Shown here piece after piece: positions 5,125 to 27,972 of a stretch of 42,042 nucleotides of DNA (the stretch's first letter is position 1; each line of letters begins with the position of its first letter). This DNA comes from Clostridia bacterium (GTDB lineage: Bacteria > Bacillota > Clostridia > Oscillospirales > CAG-272). The notes below the pieces were generated by a model. It ran no database searches and had not been told where the DNA came from. It worked only from the letters and a program-made list of their open reading frames with translations. The stretch lies in the NCBI GenBank assembly GCA_017436885.1, contig JAFSCG010000215.1, positions 1 to 42,042 on the forward strand, read 5' to 3'. Made by a program: the position numbers and the translations under genes.

Positions 5125-5744
5125 GCATAGACCTCCTCAATCTTCTTTACCGCATCCTCGGCAATTACGAGCTTGCCGCAGTTGAGAACGTCGTATACGT
5201 TGAGGGTGTTGAACTGTGTAGTCTTAACACCGGCAATGTTTGCGAAGCTCTTAACGGTCTTTTCGTCGTTGTTTGCAAGAACTACGAGAGCCTTGCCCTC
5301 AGCACCGATAGCAGTAAGCATGCTTACCATGGTCTTGGTGCTGAACTTTTCGGTAGCGATGCTGTCAACCACGATGAACTCACCGCCTGCAACCTTGGAG
5401 GAAAGTGCTCCGAAGAGGGCGCTGCGGCGAACCTTGCGGTTGAGAGTTACGCGATAATCACGGGGCTTCGGGCCGAGAGCCACACCACCGTGTGTCCACT
5501 GGGGAGATCTGGTGGAACCCTGACGGGCACGACCGGAACCCTTCTGCTTCCAGGGCTTCTTTCCGCCGCCGGAAACCTCGGTGCGGGTAAGAGTGGACTG
5601 AGTGCCCTGTCTCTGGTTCATGAGAAATGCTCTGACAGCAGTGTGGAGGACTGCCGCTTTAACCTCGGCGCCGAACACCTTGTCGGAAAGCTCGAGGGAA
5701 CGAACTTCCTTACCTGTCATGTCAACAACTTTTACAACTGGCAT
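5121..5744 (-). CDS. rplD: 50S ribosomal protein L4
   Basis: 207 aa. [25 protein letters not shown] motif. Confidence 0.94.
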
Positions 5745-6394: not shown

Positions 6395-6491
6395 TGTAAC
6401 CTATTTCCTCCTTTTCGGTTATTGGTTGGCGTTTGGATTTCCGCTTTGCGGTACGCCAACTTGACCAAAAGGTCAATGAATGCGATTTGAC

Positions 6492-6803
6492 TTAGGACTT
6501 GATTTCCATCTCAACGCCCGCAGGGAGCTCGATAGCAAACAGAGCGTCTGCAACCTTGCTGGTGGGGTTGACGATGTCAATCAGTCTCTTGTGAGAGCGG
6601 AGCTCGAACTGCTCGCGGCTGTCCTTGTACTTGTGAACCGCACGAAGGATAGTGGTGATCTCCTTCTCCGTGGGGAGCGGTACGGGACCGGATACAGTTG
6701 CGCCGTTTCTCTTTGCGACCTCAACGATCTTCTGAGCTGCGGCGTCGATGAGCTTGTGGTCGTAGCTCTTCAGACGAACTCTGATCTTCTGGTTGACTGC
6801 CAT
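6492..6803 (-). CDS. rpsJ: 30S ribosomal protein S10
   Basis: 103 aa. [24 protein letters not shown]...[10 protein letters not shown] motif. First gene of the S10 operon. Confidence 0.96.
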
Positions 6804-6877
6804 GCCTTTGCCTCCTTATATTATTTGGTAAAAAGTTGGGCGATCAACCGCTTGCACACCGTTCCGTGTGTTTCATT

Positions 6878-6925
6878 CGCCTTCAACAAAAAACGGTATT
6901 CTTCGCATAGTGGACTGCGAAGAAT
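6878..6925 (-). promoter_or_regulatory. Terminator-like hairpin (possible attenuator) inside the S10 operon leader
   Basis: On the minus strand, ATTCTTCGCA (6925-6916) pairs with TGCGAAGAAT (6907-6898) across an 8-nt loop. It is followed by ACCGTTTTTTGTTG. It lies about 75 nt upstream of the rpsJ ATG and downstream of the predicted promoter. Confidence 0.45.
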
Positions 6926-7039
6926 CCGGGAAAGCGACTTTTTGCGGGTTGCTTGCTGTCGCCCGGTCAACGGACATACTCCACGAAAATTACCCGCTTT
7001 CGCGGCAACCTTTCGCTTCTACGCATATCAAGCGGAACT

Positions 7040-7068
7040 ATTATAGCAAATATATCTTGGCTTTTCAA
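7040..7068 (-). promoter_or_regulatory. Sigma-A/sigma-70-type promoter of the S10 ribosomal operon
   Basis: The minus strand reads TTGAAA (7068-7063), a 17-nt spacer, then TATAAT (7045-7040). An A/T-rich UP-like tract at 7069-7110 precedes it. Confidence 0.6.
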
Positions 7069-7110
7069 GATTTTTTCAAAAAAATACCCAAAAATTTTTA
7101 GTAGAAAAAA

Positions 7111-7160
7111 CGTAGAAAAATCCGCCCTCAAACTGTGCAACTTGCACAATTTGAGGGCGG
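7111..7160 (-). terminator. Rho-independent terminator ending the phage-like operon
   Basis: Arms 7122-7140 and 7142-7160 (CCGCCCTCAAACTGTGCAA / TTGCACAATTTGAGGGCGG) form a stem of about 17 bp with one mismatch. On the minus strand it is followed by ATTTTTCTACGTTTTTT. It lies 41 nt after the stop of the 288-aa ORF. A second small hairpin at 7169-7188 lies in between. Confidence 0.7.
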
Positions 7161-7200
7161 ACCCTATCGTTGCCTCACGGGAGGCGACATAATGCTTTTG

Positions 7201-8067
7201 CTATCCGAGAAAATGGAAGATATCCGTGATCTCCTCGGCAAAATCGGGATAGATGTTGAGCAACGCGTTGTAGTACTTCTCGTATCTGTCCACGTAATAG
7301 TCGTTTGGGTATATTTCGTCCCAAGGACCGCTCATCTCCTTTTCCGCAAGCTCCTTTTGCAGAGCCTCCTTGCGCTTTTCCGTTTCATCCCTCAGCTTTG
7401 CGGAGTATACGTCATAAGCCAGACCCGCAGACGCCTCTGCGCTGTTATCCGCATCGGAGATAAGGCCGGACTGAGATACGTACATTCCGTCAAGGATAGA
7501 AAGCAAGCGTCCCACGCGCTCTCCCTCGGCCTTTTGTGCTGCCTCCTCCCCTGCAGTCAGATAATCGCTCAACTGACGGTGTGCATTTGCAGCCGCATAG
7601 CTGTCCATATTGCCGCCGTTTGACGAAGCAACAGAAGCCACTGCGTTTTCAGCGGCTCTTTCGCCCATATTGCGAAAACGCCCCAGTACCGCCTCACTTC
7701 CCTCGGAAAGCTCTCCATCCTTCGCTTCGTCATACAGCTCGCCGTATTTGGCGCGAAGACTATCGTAAAGCTCGGTGCGTCGCTGATCAAGGGCGCTTTT
7801 TTTCGCCGAGGCCGATGCAAGCTCCTTTGCCTCGTCATATTCGCCTTCGTTTTTTTCCAGAGCATCCAGATATTCAAGCGCCTCTCCGTAATCGGACTGT
7901 TCCAGCTTGTCGGCAATTTCCGAATATCCGTTGTTTCTCAGTTCATCGTAATAGTACAGGGCACGCTCGTGATATTCGTCGCCGCTTTTGCCCGAGGCAA
8001 CCGCCGTGCCCCACTTTCCCTTATTTCGAACGATCTGAGCCGCCGCCTTATAAGGATCGTATGCCAT
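7201..8067 (-). CDS. Hypothetical acidic, helix-rich protein (288 aa), last gene of the phage-like operon
   Basis: Intact ORF with ATG at 8067 preceded by AAGGAAGGAAAAACGT. Rich in D/E/Y/A, with no TM segment or motif I recognise. Terminator follows. Confidence 0.6.
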   Translation of the reverse strand: MAYDPYKAAAQIVRNKGKWGTAVASGKSGDEYHERALYYYDELRNNGYSEIADKLEQSDYGEALEYLDALEKNEGEYDEAKELASASAKKSALDQRRTELYDSLRAKYGELYDEAKDGELSEGSEAVLGRFRNMGERAAENAVASVASSNGGNMDSYAAANAHRQLSDYLTAGEEAAQKAEGERVGRLLSILDGMYVSQSGLISDADNSAEASAGLAYDVYSAKLRDETEKRKEALQKELAEKEMSGPWDEIYPNDYYVDRYEKYYNALLNIYPDFAEEITDIFHFLG

Positions 8068-8094
8068 ACGTTTTTCCTTCCTTTATATAATATA

Positions 8095-8391
8095 TCATTC
8101 TTTTTCAGCCAAACTGTCTGATGATTGCAAGTCAAGCTCAAGCACGCATCCCTCGATCACGGCGTCTACCGCATCGCAAAGATGCACCCCCGCCGACGCA
8201 AGTATCCTGCGCACGTATTCCTTTTTGTCAAGCTTCTCTCGCTCCGACAGCTTTTCTGCTGCCTCCACCGCCTTTTTCACGATGGAGTATAAGCGCTTCT
8301 CCTTCAGCCACGGAACAAGATAATAAGCCACCACCAAGGCAACCGCCCCTACAGCAAGCTCCGCAAGCAAGCTTAATACCTGCTCCATCAT
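8095..8391 (-). CDS. Putative holin, LL-H-family-like (98 aa, single N-terminal TM)
   Basis: N-terminal hydrophobic helix LLAELAVGAVALVVAYYLVPWL followed by a charged region. The C-terminal part KKEYVRRILASAGVHLCDAVDAVIEGCVLEL resembles the LL-H holin family pattern. ATGA overlap with the lysin stop. Confidence 0.55.
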   Translation of the reverse strand: MMEQVLSLLAELAVGAVALVVAYYLVPWLKEKRLYSIVKKAVEAAEKLSEREKLDKKEYVRRILASAGVHLCDAVDAVIEGCVLELDLQSSDSLAEKE

Positions 8392-9077
8392 TTTCCACCT
8401 CCGATAGTCCCGTCCTCAAAAAGTCTCAGCACGCGGTAAAGCACCGCGCAAAGCTCCTCTCTGGTTATGGGGGCCGTCCAACGGTAGTTGCCGTTTCCAT
8501 CGGAGAGAAATATTCCCGCATCCTTTGCCCATTTCACGTAATCCTCTGCCCACGGAGAGCATTCATCGCCCGTGTTTCGGCTCACGTACTGCAAAAACGC
8601 TTCTGCAAATTTTTCTTCATCCATATCATTTGCCTCCTCTGTTGCTTGGTACACACCCTCTTCGTTGGGAATGCCAAGGATCTCTGCCGCGTTTACCGTT
8701 GTGGCGGCGTCACTTTCGCGGACCTCAAAGTGAAGATGCGCGCCGAAGGAATATCCCGTGTTTCCCATCACTCCGATGACCTGACCGGCTTCCACTCTGT
8801 CAAATCTTTTTACCGTCCTGCTTGCAAGATGGAAGTAGAAATATACACGTCCGTCGTCACCGGCGATAATAACGTGCTCTCCCCACATCCAATTGCCGTT
8901 TGACTTATCGTTGACCACAGTGCTTGCGGCCACAGTGCCCGCCGCGACGCTGACCACTTCGTAGCTCTCAAGCCCAACGAGATCGACTCCTCCGTGGAAG
9001 CCGCTCGTTCCCGCAAGTTGACGCTCCCCATAGGGGCTGGTCAGCCTCACTCCGCCTGTTTCAAAGGGAAATCTCAT
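8388..9077 (-). CDS. Peptidase M23 endolysin with C-terminal SLH-like cell-wall-binding segment
   Basis: M23 metal motifs HGGVD and GAHLHFEV. The C-terminus SPWAEDYVKWAKDAGIFLSDGNGNYRWTAPITREELCAVLYRVL fits the S-layer-homology pattern. I prefer the ATG at 9077 (GAGGTG 5 nt upstream) over the TTG at 9092 used by the ORF track. Confidence 0.75.
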   Translation of the reverse strand: MRFPFETGGVRLTSPYGERQLAGTSGFHGGVDLVGLESYEVVSVAAGTVAASTVVNDKSNGNWMWGEHVIIAGDDGRVYFYFHLASRTVKRFDRVEAGQVIGVMGNTGYSFGAHLHFEVRESDAATTVNAAEILGIPNEEGVYQATEEANDMDEEKFAEAFLQYVSRNTGDECSPWAEDYVKWAKDAGIFLSDGNGNYRWTAPITREELCAVLYRVLRLFEDGTIGGGK

Positions 9078-9312
9078 CAAAGCACCTCGCAAATCTCATT
9101 TTTTCCTCCAACGCGGCGATCTCCTTATCCATCCGCGCCAGCTCCTTGTAAAAATAATCGTTTTTACCGCTTTGTCGGGTAATGAAATCCTTCAGTTCCC
9201 TCACGGCTTCTTCAAGAGTGGCAAGTGTGCGCGTAAGCCTTACCAGCACTCCGCCGACCGCCACAAGGAAGGTAACGAGAGTAATAAGCCCGCAAAGAAT
9301 ATCCCAGCTCAT
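9061..9312 (-). CDS. Small membrane protein, N-terminal TM + coiled coil (BhlA/UviB-type holin-like topology)
   Basis: MSWDILCGLITLVTFLVAVGGVLV is followed by the heptad-like LATLEEAVRELKDF...MDKEIAALEEKM. The ATG at 9312 forms an ATGA overlap with the stop of the preceding 71-aa ORF, so it is preferred over the longer ORF-track start at 9342. Confidence 0.45.
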   Translation of the reverse strand: MSWDILCGLITLVTFLVAVGGVLVRLTRTLATLEEAVRELKDFITRQSGKNDYFYKELARMDKEIAALEEKMRFARCFDEISL

Positions 9313-9524
9313 TGCATCGCCGCCTTTACCGCAGCCTTGCATTCCTCCACGTAGGCACTGTATGCGGCAAACTCATCGGGCTTTTCATCCCTCTGTCTGA
9401 GCACCGCCAGCTCATTGCCAATGGTGTACTTTTTCCTTATTGCCGTCTCCACCGCATTTTCATATGCCCGATCATAAGCCGCAGGAGACGCCGCTTTGTT
9501 TTTTCTTGCTAATCTCAGGCTCAT
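9309..9524 (-). CDS. Hypothetical small protein (71 aa) downstream of the tail fibre
   Basis: ATGA overlap with the fibre stop at 9521-9524. No motif recognised. The position is typical of small fibre-accessory ORFs. Confidence 0.5.
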   Translation of the reverse strand: MSLRLARKNKAASPAAYDRAYENAVETAIRKKYTIGNELAVLRQRDEKPDEFAAYSAYVEECKAAVKAAMQ

Positions 9525-11548
9525 ACCTCTGCCTCCTTTATTTGATATATCACCGTGCTTGGCACCGCACTTCCGTGCTCGTTTACCATAGTGACGGTTC
9601 CGCCTGCCTCAACCTCAACAAAGCAGTCGGAAGGCATAAGAGTGGATACGTCGGATCTTTCCGGTACGGCAAGCTCGTAGTAAAGCGTTATGCCGGAAAC
9701 GGCCGATCTCACCGCTTCCCCATCGGCATACGCATCGTTAGGGAACAAAAGCATAATATTGCCCGCGTCATTAAGATAATACTTGCTGACGGCGGAGGGC
9801 ATTTTTGCAAGGCAGCATCCGTCCGCCTTGCCCGCTATCCCCTTTGAATACGCATATCCGTTTGATTTTATCCAGGAAAGTGTACCCATATCGACCTTGC
9901 CAACGCATCTTACGTACTCCCCGCTTTCACAGTTTACGTAATTGAAACAGCTTTGGTTAAGGCCCTCACCGTATCCGTCAAGAGCGCGGACCGTTTCCGG
10001 GATCAACAGCGCGCTTTTTACCTCATCTCCGACGCTTTCCACAGCTGTTACGAAAGCCGAGCGAAGTCCCTCGAAATAGGGTTCGTAAGGAAGGGCCGCG
10101 CCACCCTCGTTCAGCATAGGCTTCAGCACCGTATCAAGGGCAGCACCGGGGCGGATGAGAAACAAAACGTCGCAGGACAATCTCTCACTGATCACAACAG
10201 TTTTTCCCGATCCCGTGTCGCCGCCGTTCACAACACCCAAGCCCTGCAAATACAGCACGTAAGTATTGGAGCTGCCTCCCTCGGGGCAACCGCTGAGGGT
10301 ATAGGTGCCCGGAGCAATATCGACCCTTCCCACCGTGTAGTAATGATTGGCGGTAGCCGTTCCTTTCACCCATATGCTTCCATCCTCGTTCAGGGTATAA
10401 GTGATACCGTCCACGGTCTTTGCCACGGCGGATGCGGGTATCAGATTCGTGCAGGCCCTCGTCATACCGCCGATCCTGCTTATCTCTGCGTAGGGCAATG
10501 CGTTTTCGGGCACTGACTTGGAGTAAGCCACGGTATCGTCGGCAACGAACGGCGAGGGGGTTATGGCAAGTTCAAGGTTTTTCACGCGCTTGTTGATGGC
10601 GTTTACCATACCTCCGTGCTTATCCGCGTATCGCTTGTTCACCGCATCCGTTTCGTATACGGGATCAGCAACGCGCATACCGCCGGTTGCGGTACGCCTT
10701 ACAAGACTACCCGCCTCCGCCGCATCGGAAAACGGCAGATCCGTTTCCTCTCCGTTTTCGCGGGCATACACTGCGTTTTGCGCAATTCTGCGCAAAACGT
10801 ACTTTCCCTCTCTCGCTGTCTCGTTTGCAATTCTTTCCGCCTCCGCAATGCTTCTTTGCTCCTCGGCTGCAGAAGCTTTTCTTTCAAGCTCCGAGAGCGC
10901 CGAACTCAGCTCAGCACGCTTTTCCTCACTCTCGCATCTCTCCAGCTCTGCTTCTCTGCGCAATACCTCCGCGGCAGCAACGTCGTTTTCCAAGGCTGTT
11001 AAGGTCGCGGTGCGCTCAATGCGTGCGGCCTCGTTTTCCAGTCTTTCCTGCTCTGCATTGCGGCGCACGCTCTCCGCCTCCTCGAAGGTCTGTGCCATTT
11101 CGGCACAATGCTTCTCGTGTTCGTCGAGCCTTGCGTTTACCTCCGTATGAAGCAATTCGCCATTGTCGACCGCCCTCGTTACCATATCAAGAATACGTGT
11201 GTAAACGTATGCCTCGGGCGGCTCGGGGATACCGTTATCTGCGGCACCCGCAAAAATATTAACGGAGGTGAAGCCGGTGGTAATTATTTTATCTCCCGAA
11301 CTTCCGAATACTCCCACGTACAACCTGCCGCTTCCCTCAAGGAGCGCACTTGGCACGGGACAGCTGTCATTATCCAAGGGCAGACTGTATTGCTTTCCAA
11401 AGCTTCGGAACATTACGGCGGTTCGGGCGTAGCCGTGCCAGGCAGGATCAAAGGTGAAGCAAACGTTAACCGAATTTTCGGTTCCCGAGGCGATCTCCTC
11501 CGTTTGGCTGTATATTCTGTTGCCTTTAATTGTTATATTAAGATCCAT
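9521..11548 (-). CDS. Tail fibre / receptor-binding protein (675 aa) with central coiled coil
   Basis: The N-terminal ~110 aa (NVCFTFDPAWHGY...SCPVPSALLEGSGRLYVGVFG...TTGFTSVNIFAG) resembles the BppU-type N-terminal domain pattern. Residues ~140-250 are E/A/R-rich heptads. The C-terminal ~330 aa is beta-rich. AGGAG RBS present. Confidence 0.65.
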   Translation of the reverse strand: MDLNITIKGNRIYSQTEEIASGTENSVNVCFTFDPAWHGYARTAVMFRSFGKQYSLPLDNDSCPVPSALLEGSGRLYVGVFGSSGDKIITTGFTSVNIFAGAADNGIPEPPEAYVYTRILDMVTRAVDNGELLHTEVNARLDEHEKHCAEMAQTFEEAESVRRNAEQERLENEAARIERTATLTALENDVAAAEVLRREAELERCESEEKRAELSSALSELERKASAAEEQRSIAEAERIANETAREGKYVLRRIAQNAVYARENGEETDLPFSDAAEAGSLVRRTATGGMRVADPVYETDAVNKRYADKHGGMVNAINKRVKNLELAITPSPFVADDTVAYSKSVPENALPYAEISRIGGMTRACTNLIPASAVAKTVDGITYTLNEDGSIWVKGTATANHYYTVGRVDIAPGTYTLSGCPEGGSSNTYVLYLQGLGVVNGGDTGSGKTVVISERLSCDVLFLIRPGAALDTVLKPMLNEGGAALPYEPYFEGLRSAFVTAVESVGDEVKSALLIPETVRALDGYGEGLNQSCFNYVNCESGEYVRCVGKVDMGTLSWIKSNGYAYSKGIAGKADGCCLAKMPSAVSKYYLNDAGNIMLLFPNDAYADGEAVRSAVSGITLYYELAVPERSDVSTLMPSDCFVEVEAGGTVTMVNEHGSAVPSTVIYQIKEAEV

Positions 11549-11557
11549 TTTCTCTCC

Positions 11558-12769
11558 TTATGCACTGAGATAATAAGTAACGCTTGATTCCTCGCTGTCG
11601 CCGTTATCCGTGCGGCAATAAGCGGAAACGGTTACCGCGTCCTCAACGGAATCATAGATATCAAAGGGGCCGGTATACAGGTAAGTCCCGTCCGCACTGC
11701 CCGCGCCGCTTACGGTGTAATACACCTCACCTGTGGAATTATAATTGGTGATCTCAACCGTAACGGGCATAGCGTAATCGCCGCTCGAAGGAGATATCTT
11801 GGGAGCGTAGATAGTCACGGGAACATCTCCGCCCTCCAGTGCTGCAGATATCATATCCTCAACCTCCGACCTTGTAACAAGCTCGTTGCCCGGTGCAATA
11901 CTGCCAAGATACAGACGCTCGCCTCCGTAGGAATCAAAAAGACCGTTTCCCTCCGAGTGTATGCGCAATATCTTCGCATCCGCGCCGCCCTCAACTCCGA
12001 TAAAGACGTTGTAAAGAGCGGGATCAACGAAAAACAGATACCTTGCCTCCGCATCGTAGTATTTTTCCGCGCCCGCATTGAACATCAGATTATTGCCAAG
12101 GGCGGTACCGGTTTGACCGCGTCCGCCTGTTTTCAGCACCTCGGCATCCACGGTTCCCGTTTTGAGGTTCGCGCCGTTGATAGCCGTCTCGCCTTCGTTT
12201 TCAAGGCTTGCAAATGTTGCGTAACCCGAAAGCTCCAGCTTGTCCGCGCGTATCTTAACCACGGAGCCGTCGTCGTTTATCCTTGCGATTATGTAAGCAC
12301 CGTTGGAGGAGTTCTCCTTGGCATCATTTGCAGTGCTTTGAGCATTGCTTGCCGTCTCCTCCGCCCGCTCCGCAGCAAGAAGTATTTCCGCACTGCGCTC
12401 ATCGACCTTAGCCTCGATCCCCGCAATGCTCTCGCCCAGCTCCGTCTGAAGCGATGCAAGCTGCTTCACTGCGGCACCGTTTTCATCCGCCGTCGCCTCT
12501 ATTGCGGCAATGGCAACGTCGTTTTCCCGCTGATGCTGTACAAGGGCTGAAATGGCCGCGCCGTTTTCGTCAGCCGCTATAGACAGAGAGGCCACCGCCT
12601 CCTTGCTTTCGGTGCGGTATCGCTCAATGATCTCCTTAACTGCAGGCATATTCTCCTCGTCAAGGTTATAAAGAACGTCGTCAAGCATCCTGCGCTGACG
12701 CACCTGCGCATCGTATAGCTCATCCACCCTGCGTCTGAGGGAGGATATAAGCAGATCAACGTCGCTCAT
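11558..12769 (-). CDS. Coiled-coil tail fibre/appendage protein (403 aa)
   Basis: Long helical N-terminal half with an ADENGAA repeat. The C-terminal ~90 aa (PVTIYAPKISPSSGDY...YYTVSG...YTGPFDIYDS...VSAYCRTDNGDSEESSVTY) resembles chitobiase/hexosaminidase-C / Fn3-associated modules. TAATG overlap with the upstream ORF. Confidence 0.6.
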   Translation of the reverse strand: MSDVDLLISSLRRRVDELYDAQVRQRRMLDDVLYNLDEENMPAVKEIIERYRTESKEAVASLSIAADENGAAISALVQHQRENDVAIAAIEATADENGAAVKQLASLQTELGESIAGIEAKVDERSAEILLAAERAEETASNAQSTANDAKENSSNGAYIIARINDDGSVVKIRADKLELSGYATFASLENEGETAINGANLKTGTVDAEVLKTGGRGQTGTALGNNLMFNAGAEKYYDAEARYLFFVDPALYNVFIGVEGGADAKILRIHSEGNGLFDSYGGERLYLGSIAPGNELVTRSEVEDMISAALEGGDVPVTIYAPKISPSSGDYAMPVTVEITNYNSTGEVYYTVSGAGSADGTYLYTGPFDIYDSVEDAVTVSAYCRTDNGDSEESSVTYYLSA

Positions 12770-14175
12770 TACACACCTCCCGCAACGTCCTCGAAGGCAA
12801 AGGAGAGAGATATTCCGAACATATCCACTCTTCCGTGTCCGTGGAGACGGATCTTGGCAAAATCGTCACGCTTTGCCCGTATGGCCGTACGAAGCACCTG
12901 CAATCCCGGAGAGGTACTGCTTACCGCACGCATCTCCCCGTTGCGGTAAACCAAGGAAACGCTCAGCCCGCTGTCCTCCCCAAGCTCCGCCGTTGCGGCA
13001 ACACCCTTCAGCATTTTGGGATTATGGATGCCAAGGGACATAAAATCCGTCTCCACGCTGAATTCTCCGTATTCGCCTCCGTCCATCAGCCACACCGATC
13101 CGTCGTTCTTCACGGCATACACTCGCGTACCGTCACCGGTAAGCAGAGCAATGTCGGAAACGCTTCTCTCGCCCCAGCTGTCGCCCGTGTTTTCGTAAAC
13201 GAACACTCTGTCCTCCGAAGGAATGTAAGCATACAAAAGATCTCCGTTTGCCGCAAGACGCGTACCGCTGAAAGCCTTTACCGCAAGTCTTTCACTGATA
13301 AGCTTGGGATACCCTCCGGAATAAAGCCATATGCCCGTGTCGGAGGCAAAAGCAAGCACGCTGTTCCAGGTGCAGTGAGCGTAATTATCAATGCATCCCC
13401 ACGCACCGATATTCACAAGACGGAATGGATTTTTGTTGTTATACACCTGCTGCATATGATCGCGTCTGAAGCACACCGCATATCCGTCGCAACAGGCAAC
13501 TGCAGTAAATCCACCCGATGCTCGGGTATCTGACTGAGACGTGGTGGCCCATGCGTTTGCGGCGTTTATATCGGTTGCCGTATCAAGCTCCCAATCCGAG
13601 CAATCGTTAAATGCCGAAGCGTACACCCTGTCGCCGTCAACACCGAAAACTCGGGAGTGATGGACGGTGGCGTAGGCAATATCGGGCATAGGCTTATCGC
13701 CGATATCGCGGAAGCTCACCTCGCCATCCTCTGCAGAGCAGCACTTCTTATCGGGAAATACGAGCAGCAGCTTTTCAAACTCGCCGGAAAGCGGGTCAAG
13801 GGGCGTTGTATATCTGTTGAAGGGAACGATACAACGCATACGCTTGTCCTCCGCGTTGTCGCAAAGAACCCCCTCAGTCTCTCCATCCTCGGTAATGCGC
13901 TTTCCCATTATCCTGCCGTTCTTTTCGTATATGACAAACAAATAACCCGCGCCCGCGTAAGCACCGAGGGGCGATCCGCCGCACTCGGCCAAGTGCAGTG
14001 GGTCGGGAGCACTGCGAAGTGCCGGCAAAAAAGATGTTTCTATATTTTTTGCGTCGCTTATTCCTCCGCAATCAAAGGATCGAGTGCGATCCATACCGCC
14101 CCACTGACTTTTTTTAACCTTACTGCGCTGCTCCCCTTCCGGGAGTATGGCCTTCATATAATCTGTAGCTCTCAT
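12769..14175 (-). CDS. Putative tail hub/nozzle structural protein (468 aa, beta-rich repeats)
   Basis: The ATG at 14175 forms an ATGA overlap with the upstream stop and has GGAGGTGG 7 nt upstream. The ORF-track start at 14253 is rejected. Repeated blade-like motifs: GYLFVIYEKNG, RVFGVDGDRVYAS, GIWLYSGG, GDLLYAYIPSEDRVFVYE, GTRVYAVKNDGSVWL. Confidence 0.5.
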   Translation of the reverse strand: MRATDYMKAILPEGEQRSKVKKSQWGGMDRTRSFDCGGISDAKNIETSFLPALRSAPDPLHLAECGGSPLGAYAGAGYLFVIYEKNGRIMGKRITEDGETEGVLCDNAEDKRMRCIVPFNRYTTPLDPLSGEFEKLLLVFPDKKCCSAEDGEVSFRDIGDKPMPDIAYATVHHSRVFGVDGDRVYASAFNDCSDWELDTATDINAANAWATTSQSDTRASGGFTAVACCDGYAVCFRRDHMQQVYNNKNPFRLVNIGAWGCIDNYAHCTWNSVLAFASDTGIWLYSGGYPKLISERLAVKAFSGTRLAANGDLLYAYIPSEDRVFVYENTGDSWGERSVSDIALLTGDGTRVYAVKNDGSVWLMDGGEYGEFSVETDFMSLGIHNPKMLKGVAATAELGEDSGLSVSLVYRNGEMRAVSSTSPGLQVLRTAIRAKRDDFAKIRLHGHGRVDMFGISLSFAFEDVAGGV

Positions 14176-14780
14176 CTGCGGCCACCTCCGGGTCTGCGTC
14201 GGTCGCACCAATTCTGGAAAGCATCCAGCTTTTGATTGTAATCGCCAAGCCATTTTGCCGCCAGAACGTCCTCGTTTGCCGCGCGGTAAGCCTCGCCCCT
14301 GAGGCAGGATGCGGCAAGCTCGATAAATTCGTCGGGCAGAGCGATATTCCCCTCAAGGGTATTGCGTCGCTTGGGACGCGCGTAGTATATGACCGTGGCG
14401 GCGCTTCCCTCCTCCGCACCGTCAACGGTTATCTCCTGCTCTCCGCTTACGTGCCATACGGCAGTTTCGGGAGCAAACAAGTATCCCTCCTCCGCACTGC
14501 CGTGCATTACCTGAAGTCCGTCAAGATATACGTTGCAAACGTCTGATGCAAGAACCCGATCCTCGCCGTCGGGAATATACAGCCCGTCAAGAATAACCTT
14601 GCCTCCGTCCACAAGAACGTGGGCGGCACGGCGCAAACGGATCACCTCGCTCCACGCAAGCTGTTCAAGAGATCCGAGCCATCGGGCAAACGATGCCTCG
14701 GCAGGCAGGGGAATTATCTCCAGCTCGGATCTTACAGCGGCAACCAGCTCCGCAGCCGTAACGGTTGACGAATAGATCAT
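14172..14780 (-). CDS. Putative neck/tail structural protein (202 aa)
   Basis: Intact ORF, translationally coupled at both ends (TAATG at 14780, ATGA at 14172-14175). The function is positional only. Confidence 0.45.
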   Translation of the reverse strand: MIYSSTVTAAELVAAVRSELEIIPLPAEASFARWLGSLEQLAWSEVIRLRRAAHVLVDGGKVILDGLYIPDGEDRVLASDVCNVYLDGLQVMHGSAEEGYLFAPETAVWHVSGEQEITVDGAEEGSAATVIYYARPKRRNTLEGNIALPDEFIELAASCLRGEAYRAANEDVLAAKWLGDYNQKLDAFQNWCDRRRPGGGRR

Positions 14781-15115
14781 TACCAGCTCTCCCCCCTTAC
14801 CCTTTTATTTTTCACCCTGCTTCTCCACAGGGTACGGTAGGCGTATTCACTTTTGGCAATAAAGTCCACACGCCTTGCCTCATCGCCGCTTTTGAGGTAT
14901 ACGATATTGTCGGCAATTCCGTCAAGATACACCTCGTAGATCGGCGAGGGCGAATTTTCATCCGCAATAAGATGAGCATCGGTGCCATCGGCGGTAATGT
15001 ATTCATCACCGTATCTCGCCCGCAGGAAGCATACCGAGCTGTTAAAGTACTCCACGAACTCCCTTTGAGTAACACCGCACCGCTCTCTCACGGATGCAAA
15101 AAGCTGTTTAAGCAT
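14780..15115 (-). CDS. Putative head-completion/adaptor protein (111 aa)
   Basis: First ORF after the capsid gene, with RBS AAGGGGGAA. The function is positional only. Confidence 0.45.
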   Translation of the reverse strand: MLKQLFASVRERCGVTQREFVEYFNSSVCFLRARYGDEYITADGTDAHLIADENSPSPIYEVYLDGIADNIVYLKSGDEARRVDFIAKSEYAYRTLWRSRVKNKRVRGESW

Positions 15116-15131
15116 TTTTATTCCCCCTTAT

Positions 15132-15161
15132 GGGGCTGTAAAAGCAGTGTTTTACAGCCCC
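15132..15161 (-). promoter_or_regulatory. Perfect 12-bp stem-loop directly after the capsid gene
   Basis: GGGGCTGTAAAA (15132-15143) pairs with TTTTACAGCCCC (15150-15161) across a 6-nt loop. On the minus strand no U-tract follows: the sequence runs into ATAAGGGGGAATAAAAATG of the next gene. Confidence 0.6.
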
Positions 15162-15170
15162 GCCGATTAA

Positions 15171-16412
15171 TTAAAGCTCGTTACAGTTGATAAAGCGCAC
15201 GCAGCCGCCGGGGTTAGTGCACACAAGATTACCGTAAGAGGTAAGGAGCGCTCTGTAAACGGAGGTTCCCGCCATAGGAAGGAACACCGCACCGTCCTTG
15301 GCCATAAAGTCCCAAGGAGTCTGCTCCAGATAGAAGGTGGAGGTGTCCACCGCCCAAGCCTCGTTCTCGGGCACGAAGCGCTCGTTGATAATAACGGTCT
15401 CCTGCGCTCCGCAAAGCACCTTGTAGCCCACTGCGCCGCCAACAAAGCGCTGCTTATCAACAACGACCACGTTGTTGGTGCGCATATAATTCTGGTATGC
15501 GGCAAAGGCGTTATCACCCATCATTACGAGATCGATCTTCGTACCCTTGTAATCAGCCGCGCGCTTTACGCCGCTATAGATAACAAGATCGGTGATCTCG
15601 TTTTCCGCATTGACCACGATGGGCTTTATCCAAGGATTCTCCTCCTTGTTTACGCCGTAGATGGCAGACGCCTTCTCGTCATAAATTGCACCGAGGCCGC
15701 AAAGCTCACGCTTATAGCTGTTCTGTACGGTGATAAAGCCGTAAGTGCCGCTCTTGGTAACGGAGTCTGCGGTAAGGGCAAGAGTTACCGCGATGGAGGG
15801 AGAGTCGAAGGTTACGGTGTTGGTCGCTCTGTCGATAGAAATAATGCGCACCGCCTTGTTTGCGTTAACAAGGGTGCCGTCACCGGCAGTTGCGGTCGCG
15901 TAAGTATAGATATCCACGGTAAGTCCCTCAACAAGCTGAGCTGTGGTGCTTACCTTAAGAGTGGACGTAGTGGAGCCGTTGGAATCCACGGAAGTAACTG
16001 CGCAAAGCACACCGTTGCCGTTGCCGAAAAGGGCGCGGCTCAGGTTCCACTCTGCTGAACGATAGCTTCCCTTGATCTCCTGGTCAAGGGCGTTAAGCAT
16101 TGCGGATACGTTGGAGGATGCAAGCTGTACGGTCTTGTTGGATATCTGGATATCTACGTACATATCCACCGCATCAACGGTAAACTCGGCGTAGCGCTGA
16201 GCGCCGGAAACGGGAGTTGCAACTCCCTCGGCGCCAAAGCCGAAGCCGCCGTTAATACCGATGGGCGCTGCACACTTGATGGTGTTGTTGGTAAGGGGCA
16301 CGCGCTTTATCTTCTCAAGGAAGGGGGAAGGGCAGGTGGATATCTGATTCACCAGCGCGGGCTGATATTTGTCCTTAAGTATGGCTTCTACCTGTGTAAG
16401 AATCTGAGACAT
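15171..16412 (-). CDS. Major capsid protein (413 aa)
   Basis: Position after the portal and scaffold genes, appropriate size, strong RBS AAAGGAGAAAAACAAA. The N-terminal pattern ILKDKYQPALVNQI...FTVD...MYVDIQISNKT is like phage coat proteins. No prohead protease gene is nearby, which implies scaffold-dependent assembly. Confidence 0.75.
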   Translation of the reverse strand: MSQILTQVEAILKDKYQPALVNQISTCPSPFLEKIKRVPLTNNTIKCAAPIGINGGFGFGAEGVATPVSGAQRYAEFTVDAVDMYVDIQISNKTVQLASSNVSAMLNALDQEIKGSYRSAEWNLSRALFGNGNGVLCAVTSVDSNGSTTSTLKVSTTAQLVEGLTVDIYTYATATAGDGTLVNANKAVRIISIDRATNTVTFDSPSIAVTLALTADSVTKSGTYGFITVQNSYKRELCGLGAIYDEKASAIYGVNKEENPWIKPIVVNAENEITDLVIYSGVKRAADYKGTKIDLVMMGDNAFAAYQNYMRTNNVVVVDKQRFVGGAVGYKVLCGAQETVIINERFVPENEAWAVDTSTFYLEQTPWDFMAKDGAVFLPMAGTSVYRALLTSYGNLVCTNPGGCVRFINCNEL

Positions 16413-16426
16413 TTTGTTTTTCTCCT

Positions 16427-16990
16427 TTAATTATTAATTCCGAAATATCCGTAGGCCTCTTTTCTGGCCTCGTTAAGATCCTTGGGTGCGTTTTTTACCG
16501 CGGCGGGCATATATGCTGCGCCCTTTGACGCGGAATGAGCGGGATACGCCCCGTTCTTTTCCGCGATCTCTGCGGTGCGAATGCTTTCATAAAGCTTAAT
16601 TGCGGCAGGATCTCCAAGCAAAGCATCCACAAGCTGGCGCGGAGTTGGCTTTTTTTGCTGGGTTGCCGTGGCATCCGCGCCCACGATCATGAAGTATGCC
16701 ATCTGATAACGCTCCTTAATATCAATGGAGGCAAGCTCGGGAAAAGCCGCAAGAAGCTTTTCCATACGTGGAAGAAGCTTTTCCAGATGTGCAAATCTTC
16801 CGTCCTTCTTCAGCTCCTCCAGCACAGCCGTATTGTCGGGCTTTTCCTCCTTGCCGTCATCGGCAGGCTTCTTGCCATCCTCCTCGGCCTTTTTGAAGAT
16901 AGAACGGAAAAAGCTTTTTCTCTCCTTTTCGGAGAGCTTTTCCAGCTCTTTTTTATCGGGAAGCTGTTCCGTGATAAGGTTATCGCTCAT
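16427..16990 (-). CDS. Scaffolding protein (187 aa)
   Basis: Highly charged helical protein between the portal and capsid genes. The ATG at 16990 (AAAGGAAAC upstream) is preferred to the ORF-track start at 17038, which lies inside the portal gene. Confidence 0.65.
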   Translation of the reverse strand: MSDNLITEQLPDKKELEKLSEKERKSFFRSIFKKAEEDGKKPADDGKEEKPDNTAVLEELKKDGRFAHLEKLLPRMEKLLAAFPELASIDIKERYQMAYFMIVGADATATQQKKPTPRQLVDALLGDPAAIKLYESIRTAEIAEKNGAYPAHSASKGAAYMPAAVKNAPKDLNEARKEAYGYFGINN

Positions 16991-18917
16991 TTTTGTTTCC
17001 TTTCTGTTGCTTATGTATATTATCTTCTTCTCCGCCAAGGCGCTTGGCGTGAAGAGCTATGTGGGTATCAAAGGCACGGCAAAGCTCCGGCTCGTGCCTT
17101 CTCAGGGCAATGAACTCCTGCCCCAAAGCAAATCTGCAATGCTCCTCGATGTGGGTGGCGTCGTCATCGTAAGGACCGGGCTCCCCGATACCGCAGGCAG
17201 TAAGCATCGCGTTCTCCTTTTTTGCATTTTTTACGTGCAGTTCTTCGGAGGAAAGAAGCTCCGAGTAACAGCCGAGCCGCATAAGCTCCAAAGCGCGTCT
17301 GCGTGTAGAGCGGGGCACCTTGCCGTTTTCGTCGTTGAAGAGACCGAGCTTGAGCGCGTTGAAAAACTCTTGTTTTTGTGCTTCCTCGCCGTATTTCAAC
17401 TCGTTTTCCGTTTCGAATGCTATATCAAAGGAGTTAATATCCGAGGAGTTCCACACAAAGGCTCCACTGCCGTCGGAAGCGCCAACGCACTCAACCGTGC
17501 GGCTTCCGCTGGCGCAACGCTTGAATATTCCGAGCCAAATTCGTGCAAGCCTTTTCACTGCGTCGCGCAAATTATCTCCCGTAAGTGAAATACGTGTGGA
17601 ATCTATCTGCTGCAGCTTCTCTATCGCGCGCCCGCTGACGATACCGGTAGGCGTGTTGCCGACCACGGTCATCTGCGATACGCCCGCAGTGTACTCCATC
17701 TCCCTTGCGATGCTCTCGCACTCCAGCCGCACCTCGCCCGAAATATCGGGGAAGTTCAGCGGCGAGGGCGCGCCGCGCTCGGGATTGTACTCCACCACCT
17801 TGCCGGGAGTAACGCCGCAGTCCTCAAGGCTTTCCATATCCGCAATGCTTCCCTCGGGCACCAATAGAGGATTGGCCGCGAGAGTGCGTATGTGGTCGTG
17901 GAGCTTGTTTTTCACTCCGTTGTAAGCACGCTGAAGCGGAATCAGCTCCGTAATAACCGAGCGGCCGAAAAACTGCCCCGGCACCGCCTTGCATTTTACT
18001 GCACAGATGGGGATGGTATCGTAGCACAGCTCGCCGTAATGGATGAGCGTATCGTTTGCGGCAATGATCAGCCTGCCCTTGGGGTACACTCTGCCGGGAC
18101 GCTCAAACCACGTAAGCAGGCGCACACTGTTTTCCGCCTTGCGGTAAGTAAGAGCAAAGGCAGAGGATACCGCGCGGCCGTATCCGCCTCCGCTGCCAAC
18201 GGGCGTAAGTGCAAAGGTATCCACGCTTCCGCCCTCCACCCTGATTCCGTAAAGCTCGAAAAGCTCTTCGCTTGTCAGCACCTGCTCGATAAGCACGGTG
18301 CGTTGGTCCTCCACGTCCTGCTTATAGATGCTCTCGGGGTATACCTCGTAGGGAGTAAGAAGTCCGTAGCGAAGCTCCCCCTCGCAGACTTCTTTTCCAT
18401 TCTCAGTGCCAACGCATCTGCCGCCGTCCTTGTCCCACCAGGAAAGCACGAATGCAGTGCCGCAAAGCTCGCACCATTCCAGCAGGGTGTTGCGCTTTCC
18501 TTCAAAATCCGAGGAGGCAATAAAGCTCTTTAACAGCTTTGTTGCAATGCGCGCCTTTTCCTCATCATCAGGGTCATCAGTCTGGGGAAGCACGGCCATA
18601 GTGTACTTAAGCTGCTTGAGATTGGCAATTCGGGACTCCACCAGCGGGGCGATGCGATTATAGGCACCCCGCGGTGCTCCCTCCTCCGTATCATATATCT
18701 CTCCGTTTTGGGGATTGATATCGCAGTACTGATGGCCGGATTGAAAGTTGGCATTCAGTATCCACTGCAGCTCAAGCGGCCTTCGTTCCTCCTTACGGCG
18801 CGAAAGCTCGGAGTGGAGCATTGCAAGAATATCTTCGGCATAAAGCTGACGTCCCTCGCCGTCTCGGTCAAGAGGACGCTCTGTGCTCTTCGCCTTATCC
18901 TGCTCAGGTGTTTTCAT
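16980..18917 (-). CDS. Portal protein (645 aa)
   Basis: Large ORF immediately downstream of TerL, with strong RBS GGAGGGAGGAAAGG. Size and position are typical of podovirus/P22-size portals. The call is positional plus general sequence character. Confidence 0.8.
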   Translation of the reverse strand: MKTPEQDKAKSTERPLDRDGEGRQLYAEDILAMLHSELSRRKEERRPLELQWILNANFQSGHQYCDINPQNGEIYDTEEGAPRGAYNRIAPLVESRIANLKQLKYTMAVLPQTDDPDDEEKARIATKLLKSFIASSDFEGKRNTLLEWCELCGTAFVLSWWDKDGGRCVGTENGKEVCEGELRYGLLTPYEVYPESIYKQDVEDQRTVLIEQVLTSEELFELYGIRVEGGSVDTFALTPVGSGGGYGRAVSSAFALTYRKAENSVRLLTWFERPGRVYPKGRLIIAANDTLIHYGELCYDTIPICAVKCKAVPGQFFGRSVITELIPLQRAYNGVKNKLHDHIRTLAANPLLVPEGSIADMESLEDCGVTPGKVVEYNPERGAPSPLNFPDISGEVRLECESIAREMEYTAGVSQMTVVGNTPTGIVSGRAIEKLQQIDSTRISLTGDNLRDAVKRLARIWLGIFKRCASGSRTVECVGASDGSGAFVWNSSDINSFDIAFETENELKYGEEAQKQEFFNALKLGLFNDENGKVPRSTRRRALELMRLGCYSELLSSEELHVKNAKKENAMLTACGIGEPGPYDDDATHIEEHCRFALGQEFIALRRHEPELCRAFDTHIALHAKRLGGEEDNIHKQQKGNKNER

Positions 18918-19128
18918 TTGCCTTTCCTCCCTCCGGGGCCGTGCGTTTTTTCACTCCCTTGCTCCCATCAAGGGCGGAATTCAGCGCCGCAGCCGCCGCA
19001 ATACATTCCTTGCACAGGAATATACTTCCCGTCATATCCTTGGATCTGGAAAGCAGATAGCTTTCCTTGGCACCGCAGCCGGGAACACTGCAGATGCGCT
19101 TTGTTTTTTTCATAATGTAGCTTTTCAT
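18904..19128 (-). CDS. Small Cys4 zinc-ribbon-like protein (74 aa)
   Basis: CSVPGC...(26 aa)...CKEC arrangement. RBS GGAGGAG. Overlaps the portal start by 14 nt. Confidence 0.5.
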   Translation of the reverse strand: MKSYIMKKTKRICSVPGCGAKESYLLSRSKDMTGSIFLCKECIAAAAALNSALDGSKGVKKRTAPEGGKANENT

Positions 19129-19140
19129 TTTCTCCTCCGG

Positions 19141-20448
19141 CTAACGGCGTACCGCGCCGCGCCTGCATCTTTCAATGGTCTTTTTTCTATGCTCCTCCTC
19201 CCAGCTTACTTCCTTGCGGGTGTTGCTCTTGCGGGTGCGCTCCATGGCAAGGTAGCGGAAGGCGTCGCATATATGGGTAATATCATGGGGCACGGTGGAG
19301 GCGTCGCACGGGTCCTTCGGGTCGCGAAGCAGGGCAGGCAGGCAACGTATCAGCTCCGTGCAGGTGGAGAAGATGCGCACGCCCTTATCCGACGCAAGCA
19401 GCTCCTTTATCTGCATCCAGCCCTGAATACGGTCGTTGTTTGCACGGGACAGTATCAGTCCGTTTTCGCGGAATATCTCCGCCATGGATTTTCCCGTGTC
19501 CTTTTGCCTGTTCCACATATCGGGCGGAGCCGCGGTATCCTCAAACCGCTCTCCGTCGGATAGAGTAACTATTGCCCGCGCCGCCTCGCTTACGATAAGC
19601 TCGGGCTCGCACAGCTCGCGGTAAACGTATATCACGCCCTCCTCGTCCACAGCTGCCCATAAAACGGCAAGCATGTCAAGACCGTAGTCAAAGGCGCGGT
19701 ACCTGCGCCAATGGCTCGGAATAACGAAGGGCTCAACGGTGTGCCTCTCCCTTGAAAATTCGGGGAAATACTGCCCCGCAAACACGTCCCAGTCTCCGTC
19801 AAGCCACGCACGGCGCAGGTCATCCGGCAGGTTTTCAAGAGCACCGAGATATGCGCGGTCGGTGGAAAGCAGGGGCAGATTGTCGTGCACGCCGGCTCTG
19901 ATAAATACGTAGTCCCGCGGGTCCTCGCCATCCTTGTATTTTTTGTCTACAAAAAGGCGTTTGACCCATCCGTGTCCCGGCCCCCCGGGGTTGCAGGTCA
20001 GATAAAATCTTTTCGGAAAATCGTTTGCACCTCTGATAGAGGCTGAAATAAATCGGAATTGGTATTCCGTAAATTGGGTTGCCTCGTCCATGAAGATCAC
20101 GTCGTATTCCACGCCCTGATATTGGGTAAGATCGCTGTCCGATGCGCAGTAGCCGAATTTGATGCGCGAACCGTTCTTAAAGGTAAGACTCTTGTCCGAG
20201 TCGCGGTACACGGCGGCACCGGCTGTCTGCACCGTCAGCTCCTTAATGTGATTTTCATACACCTCGGGGTAGGTGCGACGGATGATAAGCACCCGAATGC
20301 GGGGATAGTTCATGCAAAGGAGTATGGCCTTCATCCTTACGGCAAAGCTCTTTCCGCCTCCGCGCGAGCCTCCGTAGGCAACGTAGCGTGCGTCCGCCTC
20401 AAGGAATTTTTGCTGTGCGCCGAAGGGGCGCGGCAAAGTCAGCTTCAC
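19141..20448 (-). CDS. Terminase large subunit (435 aa)
   Basis: Walker A YGGSRGGGKS, Walker B-like VIFMDEA, and a CNPGGPGHGWVKRLF motif typical of TerL, plus a C-terminal nuclease-like region. GTG start at 20448 in a GTGA overlap with the upstream ORF, with GGAAGGGAG upstream. Confidence 0.9.
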   Translation of the reverse strand: MKLTLPRPFGAQQKFLEADARYVAYGGSRGGGKSFAVRMKAILLCMNYPRIRVLIIRRTYPEVYENHIKELTVQTAGAAVYRDSDKSLTFKNGSRIKFGYCASDSDLTQYQGVEYDVIFMDEATQFTEYQFRFISASIRGANDFPKRFYLTCNPGGPGHGWVKRLFVDKKYKDGEDPRDYVFIRAGVHDNLPLLSTDRAYLGALENLPDDLRRAWLDGDWDVFAGQYFPEFSRERHTVEPFVIPSHWRRYRAFDYGLDMLAVLWAAVDEEGVIYVYRELCEPELIVSEAARAIVTLSDGERFEDTAAPPDMWNRQKDTGKSMAEIFRENGLILSRANNDRIQGWMQIKELLASDKGVRIFSTCTELIRCLPALLRDPKDPCDASTVPHDITHICDAFRYLAMERTRKSNTRKEVSWEEEHRKKTIERCRRGAVRR

Positions 20449-20660
20449 TTTGCAAACTCCCTTCCCTCCTCAAAGCAGATCACTATCTCGCCGTCCTCGT
20501 CCTTTTCCGCAGGCTCGTCGTCGTAGCCGCAAAGCCTGTTTGCCGCCTCGATGGCCTTTGTGGCGGCGTTGGCGGCGCTGGGGTTGAAGCGCACCTCGCT
20601 TACCTCCCCGTCATCCCCCGCGATCTCCTGCCGCGCCGCCTCAATGGAAACGCTGACCAC
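20445..20660 (-). CDS. Terminase small-subunit-like C-terminal fragment (71 aa from a GTG; open frame continues upstream to 20835 with no start codon)
   Basis: VRFNPSAANAATKAIEAANRLCGYDDEP resembles the conserved C-terminal K(A)LE.L.KHLG.. segment of Terminase_2-type small subunits. No helix-turn-helix N-terminal domain is present. There is no SD before the GTG. Confidence 0.45.
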   Translation of the reverse strand: MVSVSIEAARQEIAGDDGEVSEVRFNPSAANAATKAIEAANRLCGYDDEPAEKDEDGEIVICFEEGREFAK

Positions 20661-20920
20661 CTGCTTGAGTCCGCGAAGCGCGTCGGAACGGGTCCATATT
20701 TTTCTGAGCTCATCCCGTTCCTTTTCCTCCTTCGATCTGTGTTTTTTCGCCGTTGCCGCCCCAACCTTCCCCCCGCCGAGGCTGTTTTCTTCCTTTTCGC
20801 TGTTTTTTACCGGTATTCTGATCCCTCATTTCCTTGATCTTTCCGACCGCATCTTAACCATACATCAATTTTTCCGTACAAACCGTACAACTCAAAAATT
20901 TTTTTGAATTTTTTTGCAAC

Positions 20921-27959: not shown

Positions 27960-27972
27960 AACAAGCCTCCTC

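Follow-up and report, generated by a model that had tools for sequence, protein, structure and literature searches.

Gene content and layout of the operon

The DNA considered here, called the window throughout, comprises positions 1-42,042 of contig JAFSCG010000215.1 of a Clostridia bacterium of the CAG-272 lineage, and the subject is a block of phage-like genes at 7201-20822 that lies directly upstream of the S10 ribosomal protein operon. The block, all of whose features are on the minus strand, consists of 16 co-directional open reading frames (ORFs), most of them overlapping and none separated by a gap of more than 55 nt, an array that a first-pass annotation of the bare sequence had already described (Table 1). 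That annotation also placed terminators on both sides, and both are found: an intrinsic hairpin ends the operon, and the terminator of the GH36 gene is visible in the sequence on the other side. The rest of the window is occupied by host genes, including the S10 operon, GH36, EamA, AraC, an ABC transporter, DUF711, TruB, PolA and others. With a GC content of 0.538 and a GC content at third codon positions (GC3) of 0.604, against 0.528 and 0.617 in the host genes, the block equals the flanking chromosome, as first estimated, and its base composition is fully ameliorated.

Table 1. Features of the block and its borders in window coordinates, in the order of transcription (aa, amino acids).
Feature	Position	Strand	Matches and remarks
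Conserved region upstream of terS	20823-20915	-	A-rich stretch TTGCAAAAAAATTCAAAAAAATTTT; tandem repeat TTGTACGGTTTGTACGG 20874-20890; -10-like TAAGAT 20851-20856; Shine-Dalgarno-like AAGGA 20831-20835
Small terminase-like ORF (terS), ~125 codons	20445-20822	-	Overlaps TerL start; open back to in-frame TGA; K/R/E-rich N-terminus, conserved C-terminal core
Large terminase TerL, 435 aa	19141-20448	-	Terminase_3 5e-17, Terminase_6N 4e-09, phrog_979 1.7e-47
Cys4 (CxxC...CxxC) mini-protein, 74 aa	18904-19128	-	No family match; position kept in relatives, including viral contigs L060-L066
Portal, 645 aa	16980-18917	-	P22_portal 1e-24, SU10_portal 1.3e-11, phrog_156 1.4e-32
Putative scaffolding protein, 187 aa	16427-16990	-	Flanked by portal and capsid genes; charged, helical; no family match
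Major capsid protein, 413 aa, HK97 fold	15171-16412	-	phrog_14242 8.8e-33; NCBIfam capsid_maj_Podo 120.8 bits (cutoff 80)
Conserved ORF, 111 aa (head completion or decoration?)	14780-15115	-	Position kept across relatives; no family match
Head-to-tail adaptor, 202 aa	14172-14780	-	Pfam SU10_adaptor 3.7e-07, 31.2 bits (cutoff 27)
Tail nozzle/hub, 468 aa, beta-propeller	12769-14175	-	Predicted structure; no sequence-family match
Fibre-like protein, 403 aa	11558-12769	-	C-terminal CHB_HEX_C domain (CHB_HEX_C_1 8.8e-05)
Coiled-coil protein, 675 aa	9521-11548	-	Weak PHROG matches only
71-aa ORF	9309-9524	-	No family match; no tblastn match in relatives
Membrane/coiled-coil ORF, 93 aa (lysis accessory?)	9061-9342	-	phrog_1009 1.6e-05, weak Rz-like spanin match; adjoins lysin in relatives too
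Endolysin, M23 peptidase with SLH cell-wall-binding domain	8388-9092	-	Peptidase_M23 2.9e-20, SLH 2.4e-06, phrog_3578 endolysin 1.9e-23
Holin, 98 aa	8095-8391	-	phrog_6918 holin 3.4e-11; Holin_LLH weakly, 0.005
Acidic helical protein, 288 aa, last operon gene	7201-8067	-	No family match; homologues at same terminal position in L001, L006, L053, L069 and others
Intrinsic terminator at operon end	7120-7162	-	20-bp stem (10 GC pairs), then T run

The identities first given to TerL, portal and major capsid protein are borne out by family, PHROG and NCBIfam matches. An AlphaFold2 (AF2) model of the capsid protein (predicted local distance difference test, pLDDT, 72) has the HK97 fold, with the capsids of SU10 and Pa223 as its best structural matches. 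Sequence searches of the PDB returned nothing significant for capsid or portal, the best tblastn matches of the capsid among phage records reach only 22-24% identity (Arthrobacter and Microbacterium phages), an exact look-up of the window capsid protein leads to a single 2.7-kb fragment, and none of 50,697 phage records was matched by the block in megablast. The putative scaffold ORF is open to 17038, and its length is probably the 187 aa counted from the ATG at 16990, which matches the gene call in L049 (homologous loci and contigs are referred to by such numbers).

The AF2 model of the 468-aa protein, built on an alignment of 27 homologues, reaches a pLDDT of 84.5 and a predicted template modelling (pTM) score of 0.85, and its top Foldseek matches are the Pa223 tail (8e-16), P22 gp10 (1.1e-15), Sf6 gp8, T7 gp12 and the SU10 nozzle, with TM-scores of 0.60-0.66. 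By its predicted fold, this ORF is a podovirus tail nozzle of the P22 gp10 type. The virion module of P22- and SU10-like phages, comprising P22-type portal, gp4-like adaptor, gp10-like nozzle and HK97-fold capsid, is thus represented in the block, which therefore holds a complete short-tailed virion kit plus lysis genes. Neither a tail needle nor a tailspike was recognised in the block.

Two coiled-coil fibres had been proposed in the first-pass annotation, and for these the weak PHROG matches and the CHB_HEX_C domain speak, leaving the assignment putative. Both proteins belong to the most variable parts of the block, the 403-aa fibre being 35-52% identical between species against 86-91% for the capsid, and the 675-aa protein, partly replaced in L001 and L003, is probably a distal fibre or receptor-binding protein. 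The proposed M23 lysin stands and gains an SLH domain, and the neighbouring gene is a holin by its phrog_6918 match, its resemblance to the LL-H type being weak.

Family searches found no resemblance to an integrase, repressor or phage replication gene in the block or anywhere in the 42 kb, and no match to a tape-measure, tube, sheath or protease in the window. There is no tRNA in the 42-kb window, and the longest repeat common to both block ends is a 12-mer, near chance level, in place of the attachment (att) repeats of an integrated phage. Each of these absences had been recorded from the sequence by eye. The operon is unable to replicate, excise or integrate by itself.

Distribution and chromosomal contexts

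Public data contain over 1000 relatives of the capsid protein, many of which lie on long chromosomal contigs. When one genome per species was scanned, the capsid family was found in 48 species, all of them Clostridia, Eubacteriales or Oscillospiraceae that are uncultured and live in the gut, with ruminants, rabbits and humans among the hosts, and no Faecalibacterium genome is among the 48 loci found with capsid patterns. Loci were annotated through tblastn synteny and the gene calls supplied with the fetched contigs, and the synteny analysis finds the whole block, not the capsid gene alone, in these genomes. Wherever the flanks are annotated, it is compact, measures 10.5-14.6 kb and has ordinary host genes on either side.

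These host genes differ between groups of loci. In L006 the block lies next to rpsJ of the S10 operon, with MurC upstream; in L053, DUF4153 and a 197-aa gene without Pfam match precede it, and barnase/barstar genes (17974-18581) stand between it and rpsJ. A barstar gene also lies immediately upstream of terS in L050 (5068-5373), an unrelated chromosomal context in which L050 and L051 have barstar, ACPS and fumarase upstream and RND/ABC efflux genes downstream. The block of L069 and L070 is found between Tex and CNNM on the upstream side and 5'-nucleotidase and DAGK on the downstream side, and the flanks on either side of L012, L018, L020 and L023 include GS-III, a P-type ATPase, TrmO, YjeF, AI-2E and an M29 peptidase. 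L068 has two genes without Pfam matches, S30AE and RNase R upstream and cobW downstream; its gene order (5829-16296) is rearranged to TerL, a 523-aa ORF, a Phage_holin_4_1 holin, scaffold, capsid, the 111-aa ORF, adaptor, portal and nozzle, and the block is still compact and host-flanked.

No integrase, excisionase, primase/replicase or att repeats were found in or beside any block examined. A census of the flanks at 22 loci (129 ORFs, 123 Pfam families) has only housekeeping families among its 25 most frequent and none for integrase, recombinase or replication, the singletons being unlisted, so that a rare integrase is possible. One att-like candidate, a 27-bp flanking repeat in L018, was rejected as a dispersed element of the repetitive extragenic palindromic (REP)-like kind, five copies of which occur in 21 kb, one of them inside the block. 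The core of this GC-rich repeat is CCTGTAAGGTGTTTCCAAGGCGG, and its copies at 3732, 4890, 11291, 11321 and 17367 include one in the gap that follows the capsid gene.

Co-divergence with host genes and purifying selection

The block is adjacent to rpsJ in the window and in at least six further species (L001, L005, L006, L007, L044 and L053), the capsid identities spanning 67-91%. Across 15 pairs from six taxa, the pairwise identity of TerL, portal and capsid follows that of the ribosomal proteins L3, L4 and L23 with a Pearson r of 0.97, and adaptor plus nozzle follow it with r = 0.95 and imply the same groupings. Between the window and L001, synonymous divergence (dS) is 0.9-2.0 in the block genes, with 0.92 in GH36, 0.79 in EamA and 1.28 in ABC2. 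The ratio of nonsynonymous to synonymous divergence (dN/dS) is 0.05-0.17 in the block and 0.09-0.14 in the adjacent non-ribosomal host genes; TerS, TerL and portal fall at 0.05-0.10, and towards more distant orthologues every block gene stays at or below 0.33. Two further fixed sites are found in which flanks and block diverge in step, namely Tex-CNNM / block / 5'-nucleotidase-DAGK in L069/L070, L015, L040 and L041, and ACPS / block / RND efflux in L050/L051, L011 and L014. The test named in the first-pass annotation was whether species share the block at the locus near rpsJ and keep its dN/dS far below 1; the block was found there in six further species, and dN/dS was 0.05-0.17 between the window and L001. 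Of the two explanations it offered, the particle-producing module retained by the host is thereby favoured, through rpsJ synteny, ribosomal co-divergence, matching dS and low dN/dS.

The other explanation was a very recent deletion derivative of a podovirus-like prophage. A remnant of this kind in neutral decay is what the lack of lysogeny and replication genes and the missing canonical start codon of terS in the window might suggest. It is contradicted by the same gene set lying intact in dozens of species, by a dS of about 1 to the nearest orthologous copy at dN/dS 0.05-0.17, by the conserved 5' end and promoter region of terS and by the full amelioration of base composition. Shared loci, co-divergence, purifying selection and the lack of att-like repeats therefore exclude a recent remnant, and neutral decay is left as an extremely improbable account of the block.

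The small terminase gene

The deletion endpoint had been placed inside terS, which was taken for a fragment. It is instead a full-length small ORF kept across species, being present in L001, L002, L003, L006, L053 and L069 as well, and both the short gene and the DNA upstream of it are conserved in species with different upstream neighbours. Its core is strongly conserved (LRKIW.R..AL.GLK..V...FNPSAANAATKAIEAAN), and its N-terminal and C-terminal halves each show an excess of synonymous change, the mark of purifying selection, so that the whole frame is evidently translated. On these comparisons the gene is no stump left behind by a deletion.

The window TerS has no Pfam match, and its low-complexity N-terminus holds no recognisable DNA-binding domain. 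Its positional counterpart in the L050-type blocks matches only positions 56-136 of the 141 of Terminase_2 and thus appears to be without the N-terminal DNA-binding part; a profile-profile comparison of the two types with hhalign was not significant (probability 0.2).

The start position of terS, directly after the in-frame TGA, reads ATC in the window (20822), ATA in L003 and ATG in L001 and L002. A short ORF in a second frame (MRD.N.GKK..., ATG at 20829) overlaps a run of A AAA AAC and is kept in the window, L001, L002 and L003. The odd start and this ORF could mean that initiation is non-canonical and weak, that the upstream ORF has a regulatory part, or that this copy is beginning to decay. 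Programmed frameshifting, considered for the A AAA AAC site and the conserved short upstream ORF, was dropped because the shift direction leads elsewhere than into the terS frame.

Upstream regulatory DNA

About 110 bp upstream of terS are nearly invariant in the window, L001, L002 and L003 despite different upstream genes. They contain a tandem repeat of the form TTGTACG-NN-TTGTACG, which occurs once in the window against 0.04 expected occurrences; the tandem motif TTGYACG occurs 8 times in the window and the fetched sequence of about 1.2 Mb together, against about 0.01 estimated by chance. The same tandem motif is found upstream of terS in L006 and, in the viral contig L061, between TerL and the Cys gene (5722-5737). 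In L048 (9700-11150) a lone intact homologue of the capsid gene (389 aa, 39% identity) lies among host genes only (DUF1275, a GFO/IDH oxidoreductase, MatE and Met-tRNA ligase) and is preceded by two TTGYACG tandem copies, each followed after 11 nt by TATAAT. This arrangement suggests an element dispersed over several loci, of which the lone gene would be one co-regulated part.

Blocks of the L050 type share another conserved element upstream of terS (L050 5430-5520; L011, L012, L018), a palindrome ATACAGAAATTTCTGTA, written also ATACAGAAAT(A/T)TCTGTA, which adjoins a sigma-A-like promoter (CTTGCC...CATAAT; two copies in L050). L020 keeps the promoter part CTGCCGAAAAATCCC, the palindrome not being evident there. 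The element resembles the operator of a dimeric regulator.

No regulator gene is found in the block, and we infer that it is controlled in trans. One subclade of the rpsJ-adjacent loci has an additional gene: in L005 a co-directional 207-aa gene of the HTH_26 (Cro/C1-type) family lies immediately upstream of the block (4850-5473), itself preceded by a SpoIID/PG_binding protein, and co-directional ORFs of equal size stand just upstream of the block in L007 (3557-4180) and L044 (4841-5464), the HTH_26 match being known for the L005 copy. This gene could be a local regulator without a counterpart in the window.

Neighbouring features of the window

An Rfam search for a riboswitch or leader upstream of terS had the S10 leader as its sole find. 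This S10-Clostridia ribosomal protein leader (RF03136, 41.6 bits) lies at 6956-7030 on the minus strand, between the block terminator and rpsJ, and a near-consensus promoter, TTGAAA-17-TATAAT, is found at 7068-7040. The AT-rich gene at 27153-27974 (minus strand; GC 0.39 against about 0.52 around it), with a 273-aa product that has no Pfam match, may be a small foreign insertion unrelated to the block. The window polA (34474-36987) lies 27 kb from the S10 operon on the same strand, whereas in the block-free relatives L071-L074 it is the immediate upstream neighbour of rpsJ and is encoded on the other strand, so a rearrangement has taken place ahead of rpsJ in the window lineage.

Phage relatives and comparison with known systems

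In IMG/VR, no close relative lies on a contig longer than 14 kb. More distant capsids, with 37-41% identity, come from the 33-52 kb viral contigs L060-L062 and L065, which keep the order TerL-Cys-portal-capsid-adaptor-nozzle and add a protein of more than 1256 aa (upstream of TerL and matching phrog_14770 in L060) and a 973-aa tail fibre; these are probably true phages of the ancestral group. The virion module resembles that of the SU10/Pa223/P22-like podoviruses in its portal (P22_portal, SU10_portal), SU10_adaptor, predicted gp10-like nozzle and HK97-fold capsid, and differs from it in that the block capsid is 23-24% identical at best to isolated phages and no phage genome surrounds the module.

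The known system nearest to the block is a gene transfer agent (GTA), FpGTA of Faecalibacterium prausnitzii, shown by experiment in a related family. The first-pass annotation knew of no short-tailed particle module in Clostridia, a statement now out of date, since FpGTA is presented as the first GTA of podovirus type (Borodovich et al., Nat Commun 2026, PMC12946183). FpGTA is split over two operons 125 kb apart. The one of 10.5 kb encodes a TerS devoid of a DNA-binding domain together with TerL, portal, scaffold, capsid and short-tail proteins, the one of 5.5 kb carries the fibre and lysis genes, and the capsids, about 40 nm in size and confirmed by proteomics, contain 8.4-8.9 kb of DNA (PMC12946183). 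For the TerS without DNA-binding domain, the authors cite Sherlock et al. 2019, who identified the small terminase of RcGTA (PMC12946183). They also describe GTA-type packaging of 4-10 kb in uncultured Oscillospirales, listing Onthomonas, CAG-115, UBA11524, UBA1829, HGM11616, QANA01, UMGS856 and others, with the gene cluster unnamed (PMC12946183).

Like FpGTA, the block is a chromosomal phage-like cluster of gut Oscillospirales without replication or integration genes, in which a TerS without obvious DNA-binding domain is followed by TerL, portal, scaffold and capsid, with proteins of short-tailed phages, a holin and an endolysin; near-ubiquity within its own host lineage is a further likeness. 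In contrast to the FpGTA capsid, annotated as N4-gp56 family (RCH50849.1), the block capsid has capsid_maj_Podo as its sole NCBIfam match at E <= 0.1; a Prp-like protease gene separates portal and capsid in FpGTA I, whereas the block has the 187-aa scaffold in that place and no Prp match; and a single 13.6-kb operon replaces the two of FpGTA. Capsid family, lack of a Prp-like gene and single operon set the block apart from FpGTA as described, and it was probably domesticated independently. Particles, packaged DNA and proteomics are in hand for FpGTA, whereas the block is known from its genes.

RcGTA of the Alphaproteobacteria follows the same logic, as a head-tail cluster that is passed on vertically, is maintained by purifying selection and has no genes for replication or integration; its TerS lacks a DNA-binding domain and its regulators lie outside the cluster, as may be the case for the block. 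RcGTA is, however, siphovirus-like, with tube, tape-measure and prohead protease and several loci, whereas the block is podovirus-like, scaffold-dependent and confined to one locus, and no sequence relationship between the two was found. PBSX of Bacillus subtilis is likewise a defective chromosomal phage-like element of a Gram-positive host, which packages host fragments of about 13 kb and lyses its producer, and a weak likeness extends to the terminase, the block TerL reaching 62.9 bits against the PBSX family TIGR01547, below the cutoff of 105. PBSX is a killing particle with a contractile tail and carries its own regulators, Xre and the Xpf sigma factor; the block has no sheath, tube or regulator gene.

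Among the marks of a GTA or related viriform, a chromosomal structural cluster without replication, integration/excision or lysogeny genes is seen in the window and its relatives, as is purifying selection on the structural genes; the same locus is shared by related species with divergence tracking the host genes, the block being absent at rpsJ in some relatives and its contexts varying in one clade. The integrase or recombinase, att repeats, repressor and replication module of a complete temperate prophage are lacking. A capsid-forming satellite of the cf-PICI type does not fit either, as there is no integrase or replication gene, yet adaptor, nozzle, fibres, holin and lysin are present.

Interpretation and proposed working

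We consider the block an operon that descends from an SU10/P22-like podovirus, has been domesticated and is passed on with the chromosome; it would be a viriform of the GTA type, and we give this reading a probability of roughly two in three (0.68). Its inheritance with the host and the selection acting on it across many gut Clostridia make a GTA-like device, and not a dying prophage, the most likely identity. The conserved promoter or operator upstream of terS would respond to a regulator whose gene lies elsewhere, with probably only part of the cell population switching it on, and a procapsid would be built from the scaffold, the HK97-fold capsid protein and the P22-type portal, by homology with the phages named above. 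On the analogy of RcGTA and FpGTA, TerL and the small TerS would then load host DNA into the heads with no preference for particular sequences, and adaptor, gp10-like nozzle and the two fibre proteins would complete a short tail, as homology and predicted structure suggest. The producer cell would be lysed by the holin and the M23-SLH lysin, going by their homologues, and the fast-evolving fibres may bind related cells, into which the DNA would be delivered.

Several observations weigh against a GTA-type device. Three relatives whose L3 is 82-84% identical to that of the window have no block at rpsJ, where polA and a gene for 314-339 aa are found, and L053, at the same L3 distance, has it; L050-type blocks with 79-88% identical capsids occupy at least four host contexts. 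From these varied contexts it follows that inheritance has not been purely vertical, the block having occasionally been moved or lost, or else that genomes rearrange around it. The patchy presence at rpsJ, the four or more contexts among closely related blocks and the related capsids on 33-52 kb viral contigs resembling true phages would suit a mobile defective element, of the satellite or cryptic-phage type, that relies on a helper phage or host recombination for its movement and replication and spreads horizontally to different sites. Against it, integrase, excisionase, primase/replicase and att repeats are missing in and beside the examined blocks; known satellites are without their own tail and lysis genes, both of which are present here; and flanks and block diverge together within each context, all of which makes mobility of this kind quite improbable. 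The remaining contrary points concern the working of the particle: the ATC at the start position of the window terS is no canonical start codon, so that the yield of TerS from this copy might be small; no ejection or pilot protein was recognised in the block; and a PBSX-like killing role and gene transfer cannot be told apart by sequence.

In a PBSX- or bacteriocin-like role, the particles would kill or lyse competitors while packaging DNA incidentally, or programmed lysis would release cell contents, no DNA being delivered in either case. The lysis genes within the operon, the fibre genes as its fastest-evolving members, as expected of receptor arms races, and the lack of recognised ejection proteins are all compatible with this, and the authors of the FpGTA study leave the same possibility open for their particle (PMC12946183). 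Known phage-derived killing particles use contractile or rigid tails, however, whereas the block encodes a short nozzle-type tail only, and the strong purifying selection on TerS, TerL and portal (dN/dS 0.05-0.10) implies that DNA packaging matters, which leaves a role of this kind unlikely.

Within the preferred reading of a GTA-type viriform, a more specific and distinctly tentative proposal can be made. The block may represent a second, independently domesticated family of podovirus-like GTAs in gut Clostridia, carried as a single operon, and might be the missing cluster behind some of the 4-10 kb packaging signals in uncultured Oscillospirales; it would be driven by a conserved TTGTACG tandem-repeat promoter inherited from ancestral phages, which in some genomes would also control scattered capsid genes such as that of L048.

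Biological meaning

GTAs have been characterised mostly in Alphaproteobacteria, and a podovirus-like one in a gut Firmicute only from 2026. A compact, conserved single-operon family in at least 48 gut species offers concrete candidate loci, a recognisable cis-regulatory motif and clear predictions about transfer, the size of the packaged fragments and how evenly they cover the genome. If active, the family would move genes, or bring about programmed lysis, widely across the gut microbiomes of animals, and would give a second case in which to study the domestication of a short-tailed phage.

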